From the NCBI GenBank assembly GCA_034003725.1, contig JAVEYB010000005.1:38831-70830 (forward strand): DNA of 32,000 nucleotides, read 5' to 3'. Below, piece by piece: positions 12,503 to 30,469 of the stretch. The stretch's first letter is position 1; the number at the start of each line of letters is the position of its first letter. The notes under the pieces were generated by a model. The model was given only the letters and a program-made list of their open reading frames with translations. It was not told where the DNA came from and did not search any database. Made by a program: the position numbers and the translations under genes. The DNA is from Candidatus Zixiibacteriota bacterium (lineage in GTDB: Bacteria; Zixibacteria; MSB-5A5; GN15; FEB-12).

Positions 12503-13363
12503 CTAGCTACGCTCCTTTGTGACTTCCTGACGATGCAGTGAAGTGGTCGTTTGTTGCCCCGGCATATTCCAAACGGAGCCGAAAAGCGGGTTTTGTGTGA
12601 CTTCTGTGAGAGTGCCGACCAATACTCGCAGTGAAGGCGACTGTGGCAGTCTTGCGGCGAGACTTGCCGCTCTGCCTGAGGACGTGGTTACAATCAGAAC
12701 CGTCAGCCGACTGAGCTTGAACAGCTTTCGGAAATAGCCGGATGACTGGGCCAATTGATAGAGTTCGAGCTTTCGGCGAAGGCGTCGAAGCGACTCACTG
12801 CCAGTATCCAGTTCCAGACAGAAGTGGTACAGCAGTCGGTTAATGGCGTATCGACCATACCCGTCCGGCCTCGGCATGACTGCCAACGGCACTTTGGCCG
12901 TCTGGCAAGTATTGAGGAAGGCGTATTCGTTAAGCCAGGAGATCCATTCACCTCCGGACGTTTTCAAACAGTGGCCGATTAATGCGGCAGCGAAGTCGCT
13001 GATGCCAAGATCATGCGCCAGCGTGCTGTCGGGCATGCGCCGAATTCGACGTCGGCGGCGCAGTAGCATATCCAGATCATTCTGGCTTATAGAAGCAAGG
13101 TGCCGGATACCTTCTCGGCCGAGATAGTAAATAGCTGGTGCGGACCCCGATTGCACTGGCATGAATCGCCGTTCCACCAAACCGGCATCGAATAATTGCC
13201 TTAGGCGACGATTGATTCGGGTGACACACGGCCAGTCCAGGAGCAATTGCAACTGCTCCCGAGTGAGAAGGAGATGTCGGTCCAGCAAGTTGAGTAGCTC
13301 TCGATCTCGATCACTCAAGACCAGGCGGGGCGCACTTTGCCGTCTGGAGGGGTTGGCTCTCAT
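12503..13363 (-). CDS. replication-relaxation family protein (Replic_Relax-like), copy 1
   Basis: N-terminal wHTH-like LSDRDRELLNLLDRHLLLTREQL...RLRQLFDAGLVER and the conserved LELDTGSE motif. It is a paralog of 19368-20498. Confidence 0.72.
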   Translation of the reverse strand: MRANPSRRQSAPRLVLSDRDRELLNLLDRHLLLTREQLQLLLDWPCVTRINRRLRQLFDAGLVERRFMPVQSGSAPAIYYLGREGIRHLASISQNDLDMLLRRRRRIRRMPDSTLAHDLGISDFAAALIGHCLKTSGGEWISWLNEYAFLNTCQTAKVPLAVMPRPDGYGRYAINRLLYHFCLELDTGSESLRRLRRKLELYQLAQSSGYFRKLFKLSRLTVLIVTTSSGRAASLAARLPQSPSLRVLVGTLTEVTQNPLFGSVWNMPGQQTTTSLHRQEVTKERS

Positions 13364-14862
13364 CAGAATCCCCCTTCGCGATAGCCGGGCGGCAAGTCAT
13401 GATTGCCTCTGTCCGGATCAGCGTCAGACGCCGGTAGCTCGTTTACCTTGGGTGGCTCAGATTTGGGCGGCTCACCAAAACTGGAGTGCTCATCGGAAGA
13501 CGCCGGGGGCCACGTTACACCGCCGACGTTGCGGTACATTTGGCGGACCATTTGCTCTTCGATCCGACTGAGCTTCTCCGGAATGGGGAGATAATCGACT
13601 GATACCTGGCGGGCCGGTTTCCCGCCGACAAAGACCATCGCCTCGCCAACTCCGAGCCGGGCGATACGGCTTCTGAGTAACTCCCGTTCCTCCCCTTGCA
13701 GTTCTGCCGTTACGGTCTTGAGATTCTCGGCGTCCATACGAAAGCAGCAGCGTACCGCGCAGTTGGTGAGAATGGTCGAGCGCATGGCTCGGTCCATGCC
13801 GGTTAGCGACTGGCCGCTCAAGAGGACCGGAATCTTCAGCTTGCGAAACTCGTTTAGGGCCGGAGCAATGATCTCGTGGACTCCGGCCAAGGCGTTGAAT
13901 TCGTCGATTATAAGAGTCGACAGGTGGCGCTCCGGCTCCGGAATGGGCAAGCGCGCGAAAGCTGCCTGTTGCTCGACTGCCAGAATGATACTGGCGACTA
14001 GTTCAGCATCCCGTCCGAGAATGCCCTTATTGAGGTCAAAGAGAACGAGCATGCGATCATTCAGGCATTGGAACAGGTCAAGATCGGACGTATTCGATCC
14101 GAACATGACGCGGAGCTTCGGATCGGCCAGAAAGGTGCTGAGTCGCGGGAGGAAAACCTGCGTGTAGAAGTCGCGCATGGCATCAGAGAGATGAAGCCAG
14201 CGATTGAGAAAGTAATTACGGCAGGCTTCATTGCGAACAGTCTGACAATGGTGATGCAGGAGGGCAGGATTTCTAAGTAGCGGTTCGGTCATTGTCAGCG
14301 GCAAACCATGCTCGGCCATCAAACAGAAGGTGTTGGCTATCAATTCACTTGAGGGCGCACCCCAGGTTGCCTCGGGCCATTGTCGGCGGAGCATAAGTTC
14401 CATGTGCTGCCCGACTCGATGCGGTTTGGCCCATGTCACTTTGGCCAGCGGATTGAATCGAACCAGCGGGGCCTGGTCATCAAAGGAGACGACGAGGATT
14501 CTGCTCAAGACTCGCTTGGGCAGGACGCCGGTGGTGACCAATCGGGCTGCCAGTGAGAGGAACTTGGGAACAGCGTCATGAATGTCGACCATCAGTCCGC
14601 CATAGCCATGCATGAGCAAGTTCACGAGGAAGACGAATATCAATGAAGTCTTCCCGCCACCGGACGAGCCCAGCGAGACAGCGTGGCGCTGCAAATCAGA
14701 CAATTCTATGGCGAACGGCTCAATGACTCGACAATCTGTCAAGGCGCTCGCCTCTCCGATCTGCAATCGTCCCGCGCCCGGACTCGCATTCGACTTCGCC
14801 GATCGGGGTCGAGCCAACAGCCGTTCAAAGAGCGGTATGAGCATCCGTTCTATCGCCGTCAT
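13363..14862 (-). CDS. soluble P-loop ATPase, type IV coupling protein (TraD/TraG/VirD4)-like
   Basis: Walker A GSSGGGKT, Walker B LIIDEFNAL, then RKLKIPVLLSGQSLTGMD, which fits the T4CP pattern (R/K..gi....QS..Q). No N-terminal TM helices. ATGA overlap with E1, and a 1-nt overlap with the next gene. Confidence 0.72.
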   Translation of the reverse strand: MTAIERMLIPLFERLLARPRSAKSNASPGAGRLQIGEASALTDCRVIEPFAIELSDLQRHAVSLGSSGGGKTSLIFVFLVNLLMHGYGGLMVDIHDAVPKFLSLAARLVTTGVLPKRVLSRILVVSFDDQAPLVRFNPLAKVTWAKPHRVGQHMELMLRRQWPEATWGAPSSELIANTFCLMAEHGLPLTMTEPLLRNPALLHHHCQTVRNEACRNYFLNRWLHLSDAMRDFYTQVFLPRLSTFLADPKLRVMFGSNTSDLDLFQCLNDRMLVLFDLNKGILGRDAELVASIILAVEQQAAFARLPIPEPERHLSTLIIDEFNALAGVHEIIAPALNEFRKLKIPVLLSGQSLTGMDRAMRSTILTNCAVRCCFRMDAENLKTVTAELQGEERELLRSRIARLGVGEAMVFVGGKPARQVSVDYLPIPEKLSRIEEQMVRQMYRNVGGVTWPPASSDEHSSFGEPPKSEPPKVNELPASDADPDRGNHDLPPGYREGGF

Positions 14863-17124: not shown

Positions 17125-18594
17125 TTAGAGGCTTGGAATCGTGTAACCGCGACCTCGTTTGGTCACGATGATATGCTTGACGGGGAGTTTTTTGCGGATT
17201 TCGGCGATGAAATAATGAGCCCTACGAGGTACGCCTTCCAGCGATTCGGCGAACTCCTCATACAGTTTGATTATGTCAGTGTTTGACACGAAATGACCCT
17301 CGCGCTCGACCAATAGGTTGAAAATGGCAAGCTGGAGGTCGGATAGTTGGCCGATGGAGAGTGTTTCCTCACCGTAAATCTCACCAGAAATCAGGTCAAT
17401 TCGGACGCCGTGACGCGAAAATACCGTAACGGCCGACTTCTTAAGTGAAGTGATAAAATCCCTGAGATCACGTTTCAGGGTCTGGGCCAACAGGCCAGAA
17501 TGTGGGGAGTCATCAACTCCGGACTTTGATAGGTCCCGAATTCGGCGTGACAGTTCAGCCGCCTGACCGCTTGGTCCGGTTTTGTTGAGCGATCCGAAGG
17601 CATGAGAAAACTGATCAAGCGTTTGACTTAGGATAGTGCTGTGCAGTAGGAAATCGGGTGCGATGAATTCGATAGCTCTCTTCAAGTGATGAATGGCCTG
17701 TTTGTAATCCCCAAGACCATTATAGGCCGTACCATAACCGAGCGGAACGAAAGGAAAAAGGGATTGCGATTTGAATCGCTTCGTCTCCTTCTCGGCAAAC
17801 CTGAACCACTCCAACGCTCTCTTGAAATCGCGCTTGTGAAGAAGCAAATTACCGACGCGCTTGAGAATGTCTGCCGACTTGGTCGAGACGTCGTGTTTCT
17901 CGGAAGCGCTCAGTGCGGCGTCATACATCCTCTCAGCCTTGTCGAAGTCGCCGACAGACCTGTAAATATCACCCTGACATAACAGACTTTCAACGAATAG
18001 TTCGAGTTGCTCCATTGAGGCCGATTGTACGTGCTCCAACAGATCCAGAGCCTTCTCATAGTTTCCCATAGCTCCATAGACCTGCCCTTGCTGAAGCATG
18101 GTCTCCAACCGCGATCGGGAGTTATCAGCATCGTCTGAGATGTGAAGTGCCTGGCGAAGATATACCAGCGCTTGATTGTGATTTTGTCTCAAGCTGTCTA
18201 TAGACGCAAGTTGGACCAGAGCGTCTGCTTCCAAAGCCGCCAGACCGTGATCACGAGCAATTACCAGCGCCTCGGCGGTTTGCTCTTCAGCTTTGGCGTA
18301 TTCCAGGTACTGCAGAAACAGGTAGCCGGATTCGATCAGCGCGTTCGCATACGTTTCCTGTGGGCACCTGTCTAGTGCCATTTTGACGAATTTGGTTGCC
18401 AGGCGCTTGGCCTTGGTCGCCTCACCTGTAGACATCAATGCTTTCGTCTGAAGAATGAGACATTCGACCTGACGTGGGAAGTCCTTTGTCCTTTGAGCTT
18501 CCTTGAGAGCCTTCTCTGAAGCTTTAAATGATGCGCCAAACTCGTCCTGCAAATAGAGGCGTTCGGCTTTGGTAATTAGTTCGCTATCTTTCAT
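17125..18594 (-). CDS. TPR-repeat protein with a C-terminal OmpR/PhoB-type winged-helix DNA-binding domain
   Basis: About 400 aa of TPR-like repeats (A..Y...G.Y..A periodicity). C-terminus LSDLQLAIFNLLVEREGHFVSNTDII...RRAHYFIAEIRKKLP...IVTKRGRGYTI matches the trans_reg_C pattern. Confidence 0.8.
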   Translation of the reverse strand: MKDSELITKAERLYLQDEFGASFKASEKALKEAQRTKDFPRQVECLILQTKALMSTGEATKAKRLATKFVKMALDRCPQETYANALIESGYLFLQYLEYAKAEEQTAEALVIARDHGLAALEADALVQLASIDSLRQNHNQALVYLRQALHISDDADNSRSRLETMLQQGQVYGAMGNYEKALDLLEHVQSASMEQLELFVESLLCQGDIYRSVGDFDKAERMYDAALSASEKHDVSTKSADILKRVGNLLLHKRDFKRALEWFRFAEKETKRFKSQSLFPFVPLGYGTAYNGLGDYKQAIHHLKRAIEFIAPDFLLHSTILSQTLDQFSHAFGSLNKTGPSGQAAELSRRIRDLSKSGVDDSPHSGLLAQTLKRDLRDFITSLKKSAVTVFSRHGVRIDLISGEIYGEETLSIGQLSDLQLAIFNLLVEREGHFVSNTDIIKLYEEFAESLEGVPRRAHYFIAEIRKKLPVKHIIVTKRGRGYTIPSL

Positions 18595-18659
18595 TAAGCA
18601 AGTACGGCATCAAAGTGACTCATGGTGATCTGAATAAGTGGCATTTCCCAGCACTCCTG

Positions 18660-19136
18660 CTAAGAGTTTTCACTGTTCGCCACAAAGGCACCTGCTAGAA
18701 AGAGCCCAATACCCCAGAGTATTCCTGTGGCAATATTCTTTTCATGCTTCTTACGCAATAAGAATTGCTGCATCCCACGGATCGATGACTCTGGTCTTCG
18801 ATAATCTAGGAGAATATACTCTCTCCCGTCTAACATAGAAAGCTTAGACGGATCAAAGCCGGGCAAGGCTATAGGTATTATTAGTTTCTCCTTTCCCTCT
18901 GCATAGCCGATTTCCTGCTGGACATAGGTAGATTGTTGACTGGCAGGAGAAAGTAGCACAATCATTCCGTCTGATCGATCAATTTCGGCTTTGACTTTTT
19001 CGGAAATATGCCGACCAGGCTGTACGTCGTGCTCGCAAAGGTAGACTTCCACTTCAATCTGTCGCGCACTATCCACAATGTAATTTGCCACTTGAATGTC
19101 CGCACTACTGTGACTGAGAAACACTCGATAAGACAT
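18660..19136 (-). CDS. small TIR-domain protein with a C-terminal TM anchor
   Basis: VFLSHSSAD start, and a conserved Glu context STYVQQEIGYAEG typical of bacterial TIR_2 domains. C-terminal hydrophobic helix ATGILWGIGLFLAGAFVA. Start set at ATG 19136 (AAGGAG plus 5 nt) rather than GTG 19142. Confidence 0.85.
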   Translation of the reverse strand: MSYRVFLSHSSADIQVANYIVDSARQIEVEVYLCEHDVQPGRHISEKVKAEIDRSDGMIVLLSPASQQSTYVQQEIGYAEGKEKLIIPIALPGFDPSKLSMLDGREYILLDYRRPESSIRGMQQFLLRKKHEKNIATGILWGIGLFLAGAFVANSENS

Positions 19137-19169
19137 GTTCACTCCTTTGATAACATGAATTTGATGGTT

Positions 19170-19367: not shown

Positions 19368-20498
19368 CTATTCGATGAGACTTGTGAGTTCGCTGTTTGC
19401 ACGCGGCGTTAGCCAGCAGCGGTCGAACAGTGACTCCGGTCGTATGACCGAATACGCTTCCGGCGTCGTGAAAAGAAATAGCGAAGTAGTAACATAGAAT
19501 CTGCCCATGTCAGATAGCTGGGATATGATATTGGCAATTCTCCCGGACACGTGCGTCTTCGACCGAATGATCCCGGGAGTCACTAACAACACTTGGAACC
19601 CATTGAGACCTGAATCATCGCCGGTCGCCACTGAGTTTCTGCCGTTATCGATGTTGAGGCCAACTACAGTCCCATCGGGTAAGCGGCGGTAGCTATAGCG
19701 TCGCGGGAATCGCCCGGACTTTCTGTATAGGCGGTATGCGATGAGCTTGCGGCGAACATCAGTACGCTGGCCTTGCGCCGAAATTGGCTCGGTTCCCCGG
19801 TCAATCTCAAGGAAGTAGTGTTTTCGTTGGCCACTCGGAAGCTCCAGGCCGAAGAATGCATCGGGATAGACCGGCAATGTTTGCTTCTGATCCCAACGGT
19901 CAGTGAATTCGACATAGTCACGAAGCACTTCGCCTTGCTCCCAGAACAGCAATCTGACTTCATCGGCAGACCTTTGGCAGGCAAGTTCCAATGTCACTCG
20001 AAACCGTGTGACCTCGATAGCGTGACGGAGAAAAGGCGATTTGACGCGATTACGCTCAACTATCCGGCGAATCTCATAAGCGGGTACGCCGACGCGTTCT
20101 GCGAGTATAGGGGCGCATTTGAGCCCCACACCATAAATGGCACGTGGGGCACCATGTCCCCGTCCCATTGGCTGATCGGTCGGATAATGGCGCTCCAGAT
20201 ACCCGGCGTGGAAAAGCTGCCGGAGTCGCTTCGAGAGGGCCTGCTGGCCAAAACCATATCGTTTGGGGCGACTTTTGCCATCTGTCCCCACGGCGTATCG
20301 GATTGACCGACTCCGGTAGTCCGGTTGGAGGAGGTGCCAGAGCAGTTCGAGGGTCAGAAAGCGGTGGTTGTAGACAAGCTGAATGACGGCATAATCTCGC
20401 TCTTTGAGGGCAATTTCCGATGGGGAGGCTTTGTCCCGGACATAGCGTGATCGATGGGGTCTACTGGCTGTCAATGTCATGGGTTGAATGTAATCCAA
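19368..20498 (-). CDS. replication-relaxation family protein (Replic_Relax-like), copy 2
   Basis: LKERDYAVIQLVYNHRFLTLELL...RLRQLFHAGYLER and LEIDRGTE motifs are shared with 12503-13363. The track start 20498 is TTG; ATG 20480 (MTLTASR) is an alternative start. Confidence 0.72.
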   Translation of the reverse strand: MDYIQPMTLTASRPHRSRYVRDKASPSEIALKERDYAVIQLVYNHRFLTLELLWHLLQPDYRSRSIRYAVGTDGKSRPKRYGFGQQALSKRLRQLFHAGYLERHYPTDQPMGRGHGAPRAIYGVGLKCAPILAERVGVPAYEIRRIVERNRVKSPFLRHAIEVTRFRVTLELACQRSADEVRLLFWEQGEVLRDYVEFTDRWDQKQTLPVYPDAFFGLELPSGQRKHYFLEIDRGTEPISAQGQRTDVRRKLIAYRLYRKSGRFPRRYSYRRLPDGTVVGLNIDNGRNSVATGDDSGLNGFQVLLVTPGIIRSKTHVSGRIANIISQLSDMGRFYVTTSLFLFTTPEAYSVIRPESLFDRCWLTPRANSELTSLIE

Positions 20499-20531
20499 TT
20501 CTAATTCCGGCTTTGCCGGATTCCTCTTCCG

Positions 20532-21003
20532 GACGCCCCCCTCGTCGGAGGCCGAAAGTCACGCCCACGGCGTGACGGCCGCCCCGTGAAGCCGAGCCCA
20601 AGGGGCGACGGCTGGACGGTTGGCGGTTCGAGCCGGCCGACTCTGCCCGCTTCGCCGAGTCCCTCCACCAGATGTCAAATCGTGGGGCGAGGCCAAGGAG
20701 CGCGAACCGTTTGGTGGTTCGCAAGCGACGCAGCCGCACCTTACTGGCGGTCCCTGTCCTGCTTCGTCACTTGGAGATCGACGACATAACTCTCGGCAAG
20801 TCAAAAGAAGCAGGACAGGCAGGAAGCGTGCGGGAAGGGGGCAGAGTCGGGCGGCGACCGACCTCATTTGGCCCTTATAAGACGGCCATAAGGCCGTCGC
20901 AGAAAGTAGTAATGATAATACATCAATTCTACTTTCTTAAGCTGTCCTCGGGACGGCTTACCTGGCCAATGAGGGAAGCGAGACCGACCGACGAGGGGGG
21001 CGT
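20532..21003. other. GC-rich noncoding element with nested long-range helices (candidate large structured RNA or ssDNA-fold origin)
   Basis: Three perfect nested complements: 20532-20548 / 20987-21003 (17 bp), 20637-20648 / 20839-20850 (12 bp), and 20753-20765 / 20807-20819 (13 bp). Local hairpins at 20558-20576 (8 bp), 20702-20722 (7 bp) and 20881-20898 (7 bp). Flanking hairpins at 21014-21034 (9 bp) and 21041-21055 (6 bp). No credible ORF. Confidence 0.45.
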
Positions 21004-21199
21004 CTTTATCCAAGGGCAGTCCAGTGGACTGCCCGGCCACGGCGCGACACGCGCCGAAGTATTCAGGATGTTCGTCTTTTTCGGCAGTAATAGCATAGGT
21101 CGCCGAAGTCGACCTGACGCTTGCAGACGCTGCATTTGGGTTTGCTACGAAAGCGCGTTCGGCGGTTCTTACGGAAGGTACTGGTGGGCTGTCTCGGTC

Positions 21200-21745
21200 T
21201 CATCGGGCAAGCCTCCGTTTCTTCCTTCGGGGAGAATCAGTCCCAGTGGGAGGATGCAGTTGCAGGAATGCGACTCCACAAGCGATGGCATCAAACATGT
21301 TGCCGAAATAGCGCTCCTGACTGCCGGTCCGGCCTCTCAAATAATAGCGTGTCTCCGGAAAGCGCGACATGACGGATTTCGCGGCATCGAGCTTTCGGGC
21401 GTTGCCGTTGCCGGTTACAATCCGCCGGATTGTTCTGGCATTCAGCCCGTGGCAGGGTACGCGGTGAGACTTACTCAATGATTCGATCTTTTGGATCACT
21501 CGAATTAGCCGATAGTTGGACGTAGCCTGGGAGAATTGGTTACGCTCGAAAACAAGGACGGATGGCTGTTTTTCGACAAGCATTCGGGTGAGGATGTCTT
21601 CTACGTGCTCAAGAATGATCGGCAATCCTCCCTGACGAATCGACTTGATGCCGAAATCAACCAGTTTGGTAGAATTGAAGGCGGCATAGCCGAGGTATTG
21701 TGTTCCGGGATCTATGGCGAGCAGGCTATTTCGAGTCTCGCGCAT
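21200..21745 (-). CDS. RuvC-like Holliday-junction resolvase (element-encoded)
   Basis: LLAIDPGTQYLGYA (first catalytic Asp), VLVFERNQF (Glu), FDAIACGVAF (Asp). These are colinear with the E. coli RuvC motifs IDPG...E...DA.A.A. 181 aa with a basic tail. Confidence 0.7.
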   Translation of the reverse strand: MRETRNSLLAIDPGTQYLGYAAFNSTKLVDFGIKSIRQGGLPIILEHVEDILTRMLVEKQPSVLVFERNQFSQATSNYRLIRVIQKIESLSKSHRVPCHGLNARTIRRIVTGNGNARKLDAAKSVMSRFPETRYYLRGRTGSQERYFGNMFDAIACGVAFLQLHPPTGTDSPRRKKRRLAR

Positions 21746-22001
21746 ATTTCTTGACCAGATAGATGAACAGGGCGAGCCGTGAACGTTTGACTTTGTCGGG
21801 TGGTACCGACAAGGTGTGTTCGTGAGCTTTACGGACTATCTGTTCGGGGTACTTGCGGCAGTGCATCTGATAAGTCGGCAGGTTGTCCAGGTCGCCGAAT
21901 TCCTCAGCGATAGATCGGGCGAGTTCATCCGCAGACTTGTTAGTCGGATCGGACTCGTTGGTTTGCGGCTCGTTTTTCACCGCCGGAGTTATGTTGGGCA
22001 T
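21726..22001 (-). CDS. hypothetical 91-aa protein (acidic N-terminus, basic helical C-terminus)
   Basis: ATG start. Overlaps the RuvC-like gene by 20 nt. No recognisable domain. Confidence 0.5.
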   Translation of the reverse strand: MPNITPAVKNEPQTNESDPTNKSADELARSIAEEFGDLDNLPTYQMHCRKYPEQIVRKAHEHTLSVPPDKVKRSRLALFIYLVKKYARDSK

Positions 22002-22022: not shown

Positions 22023-22307
22023 TTAGTACTCGATTACGATATCGTGGTCTCTTTGCCGGGCGTTCACCTCCTCTCGAATCTTGCGGAAGTGGTCGCTGAA
22101 GAGCACTTCGACCGGACACCTGAGCGCTGCGGAGAGTCTGAGGGCAGTCTCCAGCGTGGGCACGCGCGACCCTGCTTCCCAGTGAGAGATATGATGCTCA
22201 ACGCGGATGCCGACCAGTCGCGCGACGTCCCGCAACCGGAGATTCCGTTTCTTGCGGAAAATCCGGATGTGATTCGGATAATTGGTCCAATCGGTGCGGG
22301 ACATCAT
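22023..22307 (-). CDS. XRE-family helix-turn-helix transcriptional regulator
   Basis: RKKRNLRLRDVARLVGIRVEHHISHWEAGSRVPTLETALRLSAALRCPVEVLF is a classic HTH_3 pattern. First gene of the colinear block. Confidence 0.85.
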   Translation of the reverse strand: MMSRTDWTNYPNHIRIFRKKRNLRLRDVARLVGIRVEHHISHWEAGSRVPTLETALRLSAALRCPVEVLFSDHFRKIREEVNARQRDHDIVIEY

Positions 22308-28142: not shown

Positions 28143-29756
28143 TCAAGGCAAGCGTAGAACCAGCAATCCTTCATCAAGTGCTGCCAAATATACGTAGTCG
28201 CCTACAATATCAACCCGGGTGCCGCCTAATCCACTCCCTGAATGGTTGGCGTAGTAATGGCCAATACGAGACGGCTGTGCCGGGTTAGATACATCAAGGA
28301 CGAACAATCCCTTCTTGAGATAATGGACCGACGAGACGCAAGCGATGTTGTCTGACACATCAATACCACTCGCATTGAAACCGTCAGTCGGTTGGTAGGT
28401 ACCGGTCAGCGTTGGTTGCGCCGGACTAGTTACGTCGAATATCTGCATTCTACCGCCGGAACCCGTGAATACTTGGTTTCCAAACACCTGAATTGCCCAG
28501 TCGTCTTTTGTGAATTGAGAAGACACCACAGTCGGAGTAGCCGGTGAGGAAACATTATAAACCGCTCCGCCGTCAAAATCGGCGATATACAGATAACCGT
28601 TTGTTGCAGCGATATTTCCTACCCGGCTGCGTGTAATGGCGCCAAGGTGTTGGGGTGAGGCGGGCGTCGAAACATCGATAATTTCGACGTATCCTTTGCC
28701 CGAGCTATCAGCGAAAGTACTAAGATACAATATGTTTCCATCGGCGCATAATCCCCAAAAGGCGGTTGTGCCTATCGTCAATACTTGCCCGATTGGCTGA
28801 ATTACATTAGGAGTTGAAATGTCAAACACTTCAAGAACACGATCCCGTAAGAGAAACAGACTCGTACCGCGGAGCGTGAGATCCGAGACGCTGGAGGTTT
28901 GACGTGTGGCAGCCAAGTACGGCTGTGAGGGCGAAGCCACGTTTACGACTTGTATTCGGGCGCTGAAATTGGTTGAGCCGGCATTGAGTAGATATGCCCA
29001 ATCTCCCGATACGGCTACGGTAGTAACAAACCCCGCAGTTGAGAATCGACCTACGAGTTGGACCTCTTGAATAGTCTTGAAGCTCCAGACAGGCCCGCTT
29101 CTCTCGTGCCCATGATTATCTTTCGCCACAATCTTCCAGTAGTAGGTCGTGTTGTAACTTAGCTGGTTGAACCAATCACCGCCAGTGGCCTGATACATTT
29201 GCTGCGTAAGATTGGATTTGACCAAGGGAGGATTCGTCCCGGTGCCGAAGTACAAGTCAGATGACACCGGGTCACCATCCGGATCGGAACACTGCCACCT
29301 CAGCGTAATACCGGCAGTATCCTGCCCGGTGGAGCCATTTGTCGGCACTGGATCGGAAGGGATGGTCGGCGCTTGGTTGCCAACGGTAGAGAAGCTCCAG
29401 ACTGGACCACTCGCGGAGGCTCCTTTCACATCCGTTGCCGTCACTTTCCAGTAATAGGTTGTGGAAGTGGCTAGTTGACCGGGGGCGTATGAGGACGAAG
29501 CTTGATCGTTGCTTACGACTGGAGGTGGATTCGATGTACCAAGCGAGACATCATAGGTGATGGAGTCCCCTTCCGGATCGGAACATTGCCAGGCGAGTTG
29601 AGTGGTAGTTGATACATTTGAGGCCCCGCTGGCGGGATGCGGATTGCTTGGTGCGACCGGAGCTTTGTTGCCGCCGCCTGAATTGGTCCCTGAATCACCA
29701 CTACTGCACGATACCAGCAGTAGAATGGCTACAATGGACATTATCGCTTTTGTCAT
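28143..29756 (-). CDS. surface lipoprotein: two Fn3-like repeats followed by an LVIVD-type beta-propeller region
   Basis: Lipobox LLVSC. Tandem modules W.CSDP.GD...YYWK..A.D..G....GPVWSF.T occur twice. The C-terminus carries repeated GNxxY(L/V) motifs ending GDYVYLAALDEGLLVLRL. Confidence 0.8.
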   Translation of the reverse strand: MTKAIMSIVAILLLVSCSSGDSGTNSGGGNKAPVAPSNPHPASGASNVSTTTQLAWQCSDPEGDSITYDVSLGTSNPPPVVSNDQASSSYAPGQLATSTTYYWKVTATDVKGASASGPVWSFSTVGNQAPTIPSDPVPTNGSTGQDTAGITLRWQCSDPDGDPVSSDLYFGTGTNPPLVKSNLTQQMYQATGGDWFNQLSYNTTYYWKIVAKDNHGHERSGPVWSFKTIQEVQLVGRFSTAGFVTTVAVSGDWAYLLNAGSTNFSARIQVVNVASPSQPYLAATRQTSSVSDLTLRGTSLFLLRDRVLEVFDISTPNVIQPIGQVLTIGTTAFWGLCADGNILYLSTFADSSGKGYVEIIDVSTPASPQHLGAITRSRVGNIAATNGYLYIADFDGGAVYNVSSPATPTVVSSQFTKDDWAIQVFGNQVFTGSGGRMQIFDVTSPAQPTLTGTYQPTDGFNASGIDVSDNIACVSSVHYLKKGLFVLDVSNPAQPSRIGHYYANHSGSGLGGTRVDIVGDYVYLAALDEGLLVLRLP

Positions 29757-30469
29757 GATCTGTTTCCTCCTGTGTCATTGAGAATTGATATTTGTTTCAT
29801 AGTTTTCGCATAATTGCTTCGCACATCGGATAGTCCCTCTCGTCCGTACAAGTCCATCGTAGTCGCCTGACTGGCGTGTCCGAGAATGGACGAGAGCGTC
29901 TCAATGGAGCCGCCAGCATCTTTCCACAGGCGGGCGAAGGTATGGCGAAACAAGTGGCAGGTGAGCTTGGTACGGTTTGGGTCGGGGTGCTGTACGCCGG
30001 AGTCTATTCCGGCTCGTTCTACTATCCGGTTTAATTGCCTGCTGGATAATCGTCCGCCACTTCGACTGACAAATACATATCCCTCTCGTCTCCCGCCCAT
30101 GCACTGTCCAAGCAGAAGGACCAAGTGATCGGTCAAAGGGACCAGCCTGGTCTTACCGCCCTTGCCGTTTCTGACGACTGCAAGTTGTTCTTGCAGGCGG
30201 ATATCAGCGATTTCCAAAGAGACTACTTCTGAGCGGCGCAATCCGGTCTCAGCCATGAGGGTGAGCATGGTTTGGTCACGCAGAGAGCGCGTAGCGGCTA
30301 AGACTTTCCGTACTTCGACTCGGGTAAGGTGATATTCGGCTCGCGAATGGCGGCCGTTTCCGCCGTTACTGTTGGATAAAGGTTGTTTACTGTGCATACC
30401 GAATGACGGGAAGGTCACTTTGTTAGAGAAAGCTGACGTTGGATTCGTCTCCCGTGCTGCATCGGCCAC
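29753..30469 (-). CDS. short tyrosine recombinase (catalytic domain only, XerC/D-like)
   Basis: R (TGLRRSE), K (GKGGKTR), HxxR (HLFRHTF), H (LGHAS) and Y (MDLY) are all present. Only about 45 aa precede the catalytic domain. The start is uncertain (GTG 30469 or ATG 30397, neither with an SD). The stop overlaps the lipoprotein ATG (ATGA). Confidence 0.85.
   Translation of the reverse strand: MADAARETNPTSAFSNKVTFPSFGMHSKQPLSNSNGGNGRHSRAEYHLTRVEVRKVLAATRSLRDQTMLTLMAETGLRRSEVVSLEIADIRLQEQLAVVRNGKGGKTRLVPLTDHLVLLLGQCMGGRREGYVFVSRSGGRLSSRQLNRIVERAGIDSGVQHPDPNRTKLTCHLFRHTFARLWKDAGGSIETLSSILGHASQATTMDLYGREGLSDVRSNYAKTMKQISILNDTGGNRS

Follow-up and report, generated by a model that had tools for sequence, protein, structure and literature searches.

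What fills the gap between the genes for a RuvC-like protein and a Replic_Relax protein (RR-A) in an uncultivated member of Candidatus Zixiibacteriota? We addressed this question in a 32-kb stretch of contig JAVEYB010000005.1, hereafter the window, whose coordinates are used throughout (position 1 is its first letter). An earlier reading of the letters alone, the sequence-only reading, had placed a GC-rich element with three nested perfect complements at 20532-21055 and proposed either a large structured non-coding RNA (ncRNA) or an origin that folds as single-stranded DNA (ssDNA). We find that about 470 nt of the gap are a real, selected and undescribed structured element; at least 14 diverged loci or lineages of uncultivated bacteria have it in the same position. 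The structural part of the earlier proposal is supported by covariation, and the choice between RNA and ssDNA leans towards ssDNA. As judged from sequence features, we give about an even chance to the element being a cis-acting origin of transfer (oriT) and single-strand origin (sso) of an integrative mobilizable or conjugative island, which would fold in the transferred plus strand and serve RR-A and a small zinc-ribbon protein, ZnR.

The fold and its conservation

A repeat search of the window recovered all three complements. Positions 20532-20548 pair with 20988-21004 over 17 nt (100% complementary; this second arm had been given as 20987-21003, 1 nt off), 20632-20653 with 20834-20855 over 22 nt (91% complementary, with a perfect 12-mer inside), and 20753-20765 with 20807-20819 over 13 nt (100% complementary). 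With 3 mismatches allowed, the 17-mer occurs only at these two sites in the 32-kb window, where 0.16 would be expected. The local GC hairpins described earlier were also found, and the fold is branched and not a simple palindrome, as had been proposed, because the helix centres differ. Folded with RNA parameters and compared with dinucleotide shuffles, the 561-nt stretch 20500-21060 gave z = -12.3 on the plus strand and -12.4 on the minus strand. With DNA parameters, the 486-nt core at 20525-21010 gave z = -12.1 and -9.0, respectively, and energies of -154.8 and -142.3 kcal/mol. The GC content of the window peaks at the element (0.59 vs about 0.50-0.55 nearby).

A consensus structure was derived from an L-INS-i alignment with RNAalifold, and a second alignment with its own consensus fold agreed with it. 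The structure comprises about 14 helices, organized as a closing helix, P1, and three domains, A, B and C (Table 1). We scored covariation over 100 pairs in 13 distinct sequences, using 500 shuffles and slid copies of the structure as controls. Standard pairs were formed in 94.4% of the cells, compared with 85.5 ± 0.5% in the shuffles and 38-52% in the slid controls. Forty-seven of the 100 pairs had changed on both sides, against 18.6 ± 2.7 in the shuffles (0 of 500 reached 47) and 11-17 in the slid controls. A more distant homologue, L069, which is 57% identical and was fetched afterwards, kept 82 of its 98 scorable pairs (84%, vs 21-40% in slid controls) and differed from the window by 14 compensations. 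Covariation in homologous intergenic regions, which the sequence-only reading had named as a check, is therefore strongly positive. The element behaves as a structured nucleic acid, RNA or ssDNA, whose structure is maintained by compensatory substitutions.

Individual helices illustrate this pattern. In P1, 11 of 17 pairs were changed on both sides across the 13 sequences; CCTC/GAGG becomes CCTTTC/GAAAGG among the homologues, and the held-out L069 retains the pairing as CGTTC/GAACG. Helices 3-7 of domain A are 85-97% paired, with 12 of 24 pairs double-changed, and the conserved junction sequences of this domain, GGAGGCCGAAAGUC and GGCGGUUCGAG, are, together with GGGGCGAGGCCAAGGAG, the invariant junction sequences of the element. 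Within domain B, P8 shows compensation from CTCTG/CAGAG to CTACG/CGTAG, and the side hairpin at 20702-20722 occurs as GCGAACC/GGTTCGC, GCGAGTTGA/TCAACTCGC and GTGACCGGC/GCCGGTCAC. The AT-rich hairpin of domain C has a lower stem, AAAGTAGAA/TTCTACTTT, that is invariant in 12 of the 13 sequences, and an upper stem that covaries; where the lower stem differs, it is compensated (GTACAA/TTGTAC in L017 and CGTACAATTG/CAATTGTACG in L069). Three stems are thus nearly invariant in sequence, namely P11, the CCGACU/AGUCGG core of P8 and this lower stem. The hairpin loops vary in size and sequence across the homologues, and the alignment contains no conserved tetraloops.

The core is flanked by further hairpins. 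H0, on the RR-A side, scored as terminator-like on the plus strand; its stem covaries (CCCGG/CCGGG, CCCGC/GCGGG and GCCGCG/CGCGGC), and the U/C-rich linker that follows is conserved. The stems of H1 and H2, on the opposite side, also covary, and neither hairpin is followed by a T-run on either strand. As a separate observation, the pentamer CCGAC/GTCGG occurs 6 times in 20532-21004, where about 2 copies are expected (p ~0.013), and 4-7 times in every homologue, mostly within P1, P8 and the junction before the 3' arm of P1. It may be a protein recognition unit.

The core from one P1 arm to the other is non-coding, because its substitutions show no periodicity (470, 440 and 450 by position modulo 3; p = 0.6) and most of its indels have lengths not divisible by 3 (only about 10-15% are multiples of 3). 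Open reading frames (ORFs) that a gene finder placed inside the core of L011 and L017 were rejected, as they show no periodicity. The earlier statement that the gap has no credible ORF thus holds for 20532-21004 and fails at 21063-21203, where the conserved 46-aa ORF of ZnR lies.

We also compared the element with known families. Searches with cmscan against Rfam 15, which includes RNase P, tmRNA, the group II intron, ROOL, GOLLD, OLE, HEARO, ARRPOF, GEBRO and PAGEV, gave no match at the gathering threshold in the window or in 10 homologous loci. At E values up to 10 over 20300-21300, the search returned only chance hairpin matches, such as miRNA precursors, of at most 24 bits against thresholds of at least 74. 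ARAGORN found no tRNA or tmRNA. These results agree with the impression, formed from the letters alone, that the element does not resemble RNase P, tmRNA, SRP, 6S or group II intron domain V. A blastn search of the region gave no match among PLSDB plasmids or INPHARED phages. Pattern and protein scans of IMG/VR gave only two hits (L067 and L068), which were discarded as chance 17-mer matches that are not homologous by nhmmer.

The folding strand, the partner genes and their distribution

Strand-specific signals point to one strand. In 12 of 12 homologues, the gain in folding energy over composition-matched shuffles of the same strand is larger for the plus strand than for the minus strand, with a mean difference of 11.6 kcal/mol; such strand-specific folding of one strand is what is generally expected of an sso. 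On the plus strand, the consensus structure contains 38 G·U/G·T cells in 22 columns vs 17 A·C cells in 13 columns, the latter being the would-be wobbles of the minus strand. Polymorphisms among close relatives (7 G·U vs 5 A·C) are too few to call the strand. Unpaired positions on the plus strand are 31% A vs 21% T, a bias seen in all 10 sequences examined. Given the better folding in all 12 homologues, the excess of G·U over A·C and the DNA-parameter energies, we conclude that the functional single strand is the plus strand of the window. This strand is the template strand of every island gene, and the folded strand is therefore antisense to all of them, which argues against a role within the minus-strand operon mRNA.

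With respect to the neighbouring genes, all of those around the element lie on the minus strand. ZnR is rich in Arg and Lys, carries a CxxC...CYYC pattern and fills the first ~140 nt of the gap, just outside the 20532-21055 interval described earlier. Its C-terminus, ...KC.VCKR.VDFG.LCYYCRKRRTS followed by the stop, is conserved in every element-bearing locus, and its substitutions are 3-periodic (134, 108 and 236 by position modulo 3; p = 3e-13). Gene callers report it in L004 and L005, and it is too short for the ORF lists. No match to ZnR was found in Pfam, NCBIfam or PADLOC.

RR-A lies directly downstream of the element in the gene sense, and its start (the ATG at 20480, as used by gene callers) is 52 nt from P1. 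It keeps the catalytic motif PDA...FLE(I/M)D(R)GTE. Replic_Relax is a PD-(D/E)XK family (PMC3424549) that corresponds to the MOBC relaxase class (PMC5357655, PMC5714925). A sequence search of RR-A against the PDB returned nothing, and tblastn against PLSDB plasmids gave no significant match save one weak Herpetosiphon match at 30%. Neither RR-A nor the RuvC-like protein nor the 91-aa ORF was matched in PADLOC or NCBIfam.

To place the element in a wider context, we assembled 71 loci by look-ups and by two scans of collections; 17 metagenomic contigs carry the exact RuvC-like protein, and there are 15 related protein clusters. The order HTH (helix-turn-helix) gene, 91-aa ORF, RuvC-like gene and Replic_Relax gene is widely kept, and ZnR and the element stand between the last two in the element-bearing loci. 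A gap-bearing set (the window clade, L011, L015, L017, L018, L023, L025, L026, L044, L045, L046, L062 and L069) combines a gap of 720-830 nt with a Replic_Relax gene that shares at least 38% identity with RR-A. This gap is GC-enriched (0.55-0.62 vs 0.49-0.59 in the flanks) and folds far better than shuffles in all of these loci (z between -18 and -5). A second set lacks the gap, with the RuvC-like gene directly against a distant Replic_Relax gene (24-29% identity). ZnR, the structured core and an RR-A-type gene occur together in all 14 lineages and are jointly absent from the sister loci. By nhmmer, each locus has exactly one copy of the element, in conserved synteny, and no further copy turned up in the rest of the window or in 70 fetched loci.

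The metagenome-assembled genomes (MAGs) that carry these loci are labelled Ignavibacteriales, Zixibacteria, Eisenbacteria and Omnitrophota, and L069 lies on a 1.1-Mb contig labelled Kerfeldbacteria. The last label is doubtful, because the contig also has Por_Secre_tail genes, of the type IX secretion system (T9SS) type. The RR-A family comprises 119 clusters (E <= 1e-5), and the element is therefore likely to extend far beyond the 14 lineages covered here. Some RR-A-type clusters are on MAGs labelled Patescibacteria or Kerfeldbacteria, and one is from a Methanosarcinaceae archaeon; provided that the binning is correct, the island family reaches across phyla and perhaps across domains.

Two loci deserve separate mention. 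In L046 (6744-7229 vs 20525-21010 of the window), the core is 84% identical, whereas the RuvC-like protein is 39%, ZnR 50% and RR-A 54% identical; this mosaic means either that the core is under extreme constraint or that it alone has been exchanged between lineages. In L062, which is 85% identical, an insertion of ~320 nt at 1149-1470 replaces the ZnR-side arm of P1 and both flank hairpins and leaves the other arm intact. The insertion carries a small ORF (MATYKDIQDWVRKRYGFVPQTCWIGHCKELNGLP...) on the opposite strand, and the locus is either a disrupted copy or an assembly chimera.

Sister loci without the element (L024, L027, L029, L030, L031-L034, L039, L042, L043 and L047-L050) carry a conserved motif of ~50 nt at the 3' end of their Replic_Relax gene (L030, 4412-4600). 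It consists of a 15-bp hairpin, CCCGGCGGATGAGG...CCTCATCTGCCGGG, followed by TGCGGGAGCG. Repeated TATACAG units follow in L029, L030, L031 and L042, and L024 has two copies of the motif ~1.3 kb apart. The motif is a candidate for a simpler cis site of that lineage, perhaps its oriT. Since a conserved hairpin, simpler than the element, adjoins the Replic_Relax gene in these loci, a cis site beside this gene seems to be general.

The remaining genes complete the picture of the island. In the 181-aa RuvC-like protein, D12, E67 and D152 are invariant in an alignment of 13 homologues. It has a canonical RuvC-type fold, not one of TnpB, IscB or IS110 type, and a guide resembling omega or bridge RNA was rejected on this basis. 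A poxvirus-like concatemer junction acted on by this enzyme was likewise rejected, since the repeats do not form one simple palindrome and RuvC-like genes are also found in loci without the element. In a further group (L020, L021, L037, L038, L040, L041 and L052-L057), two tandem RuvC-like genes follow the 91-aa-type ORF, without a Replic_Relax gene; after these, L020 and L021 have Hypoth_Ymh, PDDEXK_1 and RadC genes, and L021 also has DUF932.

Past RR-A, the minus strand encodes a TIR protein, a TPR/Trans_reg_C protein, small ORFs, a ThiF-like protein, an ATPase resembling TraG and type IV coupling proteins (T4CPs), a second Replic_Relax protein (RR-B), a double zinc ribbon and an MT-A70 methylase. 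The homologous loci give weak matches to TraG-D_C, TrwB and T4SS-DNA_transf. RR-A and RR-B are divergent paralogues, ~27% identical, of which RR-B adjoins the T4CP-like ATPase and RR-A the element; they may divide the labour, for example as relaxase and replication initiator. The slot after RR-A varies, with a TIR-domain protein in the window (17125-19142), an unrelated 279-aa ORF in L011 (8565-9404) and an Mrr_cat/nSTAND NTPase in L017 (8644-11415), and looks like a hot spot for defence genes. The window has a tyrosine integrase (29753-30469), and genes for a mating pore (VirB4 or other components of a type IV secretion system) were not found in it; the island therefore looks like an integrative mobilizable element.

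Table 1. Parts of the structured element and genes of the island, in window coordinates.
Feature	Position	Strand	Description
Flanking hairpin H0, TCCGGCTTTGCCGGA	20506-20520	+	followed by a pyrimidine-rich linker to 20531; between the Replic_Relax start codon and P1
P1, 5' arm, GACGCCCCCCTCGTCGG plus GG	20532-20551	+	pairs with 20984-21004
Domain A	20553-20630	+	invariant CGAA/UUCG closing helix; hairpin 20558-20576; long hairpin 20579-20626
Domain B	20632-20855	+	long irregular arm with P8, P9, P11, two side hairpins and a variable 41-nt apical loop
P8	20632-20653 with 20834-20855	+	20 pairs, 98% paired, 8 double-changed
Side hairpin of domain B	20654-20693	+	
Side hairpin of domain B	20702-20708 with 20716-20722	+	covarying
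P9	20734-20746 with 20820-20833	+	
P11	20753-20765 with 20807-20819	+	13 pairs, 98% paired
Domain C	20862-20974	+	helices 12-14; hairpin GACGGCC/GGCCGTC 20881-20898; AT-rich hairpin 20901-20937; hairpin 20940-20958
P1, 3' arm, CC plus CCGACGAGGGGGGCGTC	20984-21004	+	conserved junction ACCGACCGACGA just before
H1	21014-21034	+	GGGCAGTCCA-G-TGGACTGCCC, an inverted repeat with conserved core GTCCNGTGGAC; between P1 and the zinc-ribbon ORF
H2	21040-21056	+	CGGCGCG-ACA-CGCGCCG; between P1 and the zinc-ribbon ORF
RR-B	12503-13363	-	second Replic_Relax protein
TraG/T4CP-like ATPase	13363-14862	-	499 aa; TraG-D_C 20.2 bits, below the Pfam cut-off of 22
RR-A	19368-20480	-	370 aa; Replic_Relax (PF13814; MOBC-type PD-(D/E)XK), 53.8 bits vs cut-off 25.3
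ZnR	21063-21203	-	46-aa basic zinc-ribbon ORF, MRPRQPTSTFRKNRRTRFRSKPKCSVCKRQVDFGDLCYYCRKRRTS; overlaps the RuvC-like stop codon by 4 nt
RuvC-like protein	21200-21745	-	181 aa; upstream of ZnR; Pfam RuvC at cut-off, 22.2 bits
91-aa ORF	21726-22001	-	
HTH_3 protein	22023-22307	-	
Tyrosine integrase	29753-30469		

Transferred DNA or transcribed RNA

Several features are consistent with an oriT and sso. As in MOBC-type oriTs, the element lies beside a Replic_Relax/MOBC gene and contains inverted repeats. Its helices are long and perfect, and wobbles account for only 3.2% of the pairs; together with the invariant stems, the freely varying hairpin loops and the enrichment of CCGAC/GTCGG, this suggests DNA-like traits. 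The near-invariant stems suit a DNA role because proteins that read duplex DNA would constrain their sequence. A scan that does not cover the promoter types of these phyla found no sigma-70-like promoter upstream of 20506 on the plus strand, no terminator was detected after 21056 on that strand, and the only terminator-like hairpin is on the 5' side. Inside the element, the single promoter-like site is weak and sigma-70-like; it lies on the minus strand (20940-20912), within the conserved AT-rich hairpin. By analogy with F-type plasmids, in which the transferred strand is the template of the leading genes (PMC11541004), the element would stand between a possible leading region (HTH, 91-aa ORF, RuvC-like, ZnR) and the side with the relaxase and coupling-protein genes. 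What defines an sso is its structure and its orientation, and integrative and conjugative elements (ICEs) carry such origins (PMC4595007).

From these features we infer that the folded molecule is DNA, and with it a nick, a direction of transfer and a priming role. RR-A would nick the plus strand at or next to the element, a plausible place being near H1 and H2 on the 3' side of P1. The plus strand would then be unwound and transferred or displaced 5' to 3'; ZnR, the RuvC-like gene, the 91-aa ORF and the HTH gene would enter first as the leading region, and RR-A and the coupling-protein-like gene last. Once single-stranded, the ~470 nt would snap into the P1-closed three-domain fold, resisting SSB, the protein that binds single-stranded DNA. 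The fold would expose sites that are double-stranded and specific in sequence, namely CCGAC/GTCGG, P11 and the stem AAAGTAGAA/TTCTACTTT, which could serve re-binding of the nuclease or recruitment of a host polymerase or primase for complementary-strand synthesis. The ZnR protein would probably work alongside RR-A at the element.

A number of observations weigh against this assignment. Known oriTs, sso and single-strand initiation sites (ssi) are hairpins or short clusters of hairpins, and none is known with a 14-helix, P1-closed, three-domain fold of ~470 nt. The unpaired junction nucleotides are highly conserved and the unpaired positions of the plus strand are enriched in A, and both properties are typical of structured RNAs. 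An sso of the ssoA type was rejected, as its CS-6 sequence, TAGCG(T/A), is absent from both strands of the window core and of 12 homologues. The T4CP-like match is below the Pfam cut-off (20.2 vs 22 bits), the mating-pore genes are missing from the window, and nicking by RR-A is a prediction from its family. Furthermore, ssDNA and RNA motifs are not reliably separable by sequence (Weinberg et al., PMC5737381).

The conserved junctions and A-rich unpaired positions would fit a new class of large ncRNA, of ~470-560 nt, made from the plus strand antisense to the operon and acting in trans, for instance as RNA subunit or scaffold in a complex with ZnR, RR-A or both; we regard this as the main rival, possible but tentative. 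Equally tentative is the proposal that the same ncRNA forms a ribonucleoprotein with the 46-aa zinc-ribbon peptide and RR-A, with a function in transfer, replication control or targeting of islands that are spread over MAGs assigned to Ignavibacteriales, Zixibacteria and Patescibacteria. The multi-domain architecture with its long-range closing helix and invariant junctions, the strong covariation, the plus-strand preference in all 12 homologues with wobbles exceeding A·C, and the GC content above that of the flanks all favour an RNA, as do the co-occurrence with a small Arg/Lys-rich zinc ribbon and a core far more conserved than the flanking proteins (84% in L046, vs 39% for RuvC and 54% for RR-A). 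However, such a transcript has no recognisable plus-strand promoter upstream of 20506, where a promoter would have to sit inside the RR-A coding sequence, and no terminator after 21056, the terminator-like hairpin being on the wrong, 5' side. The scarcity of wobbles in long, perfect helices, the variable loops without conserved tetraloops, the sequence-invariant stems and the lack of an Rfam family are also unfavourable to it. Alternatively, the element could belong to the minus-strand operon mRNA, as a structured stretch between cistrons or a long 5' leader through which the RR-A message would be controlled in its expression, processing or stability. It does lie between two same-strand genes, read-through past ZnR is plausible because H1 and H2, after the ZnR stop codon, lack T-runs, and the sigma-70-like site in the AT-rich hairpin is on the minus strand. 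Yet the minus strand folds worse in all 12 homologues, and on it the wobbles that recur turn into A·C mismatches and the unpaired positions are U-rich; a transcript from the internal promoter would lose one P1 arm and half of domain C, although P1 is among the best-supported helices. We consider this role unlikely.

The sequence-only reading had already judged a miniature inverted-repeat transposable element (MITE) less likely, and our data refute the MITE explanation. A MITE or other selfish palindromic insertion, without function for the island, would account for the perfect 17-bp terminal inverted repeats. Nevertheless, the window and all the other loci have a single copy each, in the same syntenic place, and no target-site duplication flanks the element, and for these reasons we set this explanation aside as exceedingly improbable. 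The element is, moreover, kept with compensatory changes across loci whose proteins are only 39-45% identical, and searches of the viral, plasmid and phage collections did not find it.

Relation to known systems and significance

The oriT of pAD1 is reportedly one large inverted repeat of ~140 bp with short direct repeats; compared with that single repeat, the element has nested, branched repeats over 470 nt. Like the oriTs of pAD1 (TraX) and CloDF13 (MobC), it is intergenic, dominated by inverted repeats and located beside a PD-(D/E)XK Replic_Relax/MOBC gene and a TraG-like gene, the latter putative in the island. Both TraX and MobC have been assigned to the MOBC family (PMC5714925, PMC5357655). 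The sso of pBAA1 and sso1 of ICEBs1 (PMC4595007) are likewise non-coding, orientation-specific and adjacent to a mobile element's gene for a nickase or relaxase. They are active only when folded as ssDNA, with structure mattering more than sequence (PMC4595007), and we propose the same for the element. Known sso are, however, ~150-350 nt long with about three stem-loops, whereas the element has ~14 helices and a long-range closing helix of 17-19 bp; it also differs from ssoA in lacking CS-6 and shows no sequence similarity in the plasmid collection. Frpo/ssi sites (PMC11541004) are comparable in that the transferred strand folds to mimic a duplex, which we propose for the element as well, that this strand is the gene template and that the genes have one orientation relative to oriT. 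Each Frpo site is one long hairpin (up to ~350 nt) that has -35 and -10 boxes and lies upstream of leading-region genes. The element, in contrast, is GC-rich and branched, has its one weak promoter-like site and is flanked by the putative leading genes on one side and by the relaxase gene on the other.

Among RNAs, ROOL, GOLLD, OLE and HEARO/omega RNA are large bacterial ncRNAs of mobile elements, all of them Rfam families. The element shares with these their size class, a multi-domain covarying architecture and residence in mobile DNA, and differs in having no Rfam match, very low wobble, unconserved loops and no evident transcription signals. ARRPOF, GEBRO and PAGEV (PMC5737381) are similar as GC-enriched conserved folds in or between replication origins, with the same ambiguity between ssDNA and RNA. 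These motifs are 200-350 nt long, and the element is larger, occurs in other hosts, is linked to Replic_Relax and a zinc-ribbon ORF, and is not matched by their models in cmscan. Even a slightly branched ssDNA motif has been called "rare" (Weinberg et al., PMC5737381).

If the folded molecule is RNA, it would join the few bacterial ncRNAs longer than 400 nt whose function is unknown, and two proteins would be its obvious candidate partners. If it is DNA, the element would be the most elaborate conserved ssDNA fold yet tied to a transfer or replication nuclease, and the first cis site for PD-(D/E)XK (MOBC/Replic_Relax) relaxases outside Firmicutes and enterobacterial plasmids. It would also provide a handle on how islands move in uncultivated bacteria of the FCB group and candidate phyla, through a relaxase class that has been little studied. 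Under either reading, ZnR, the element and RR-A form a clean, experimentally testable module.

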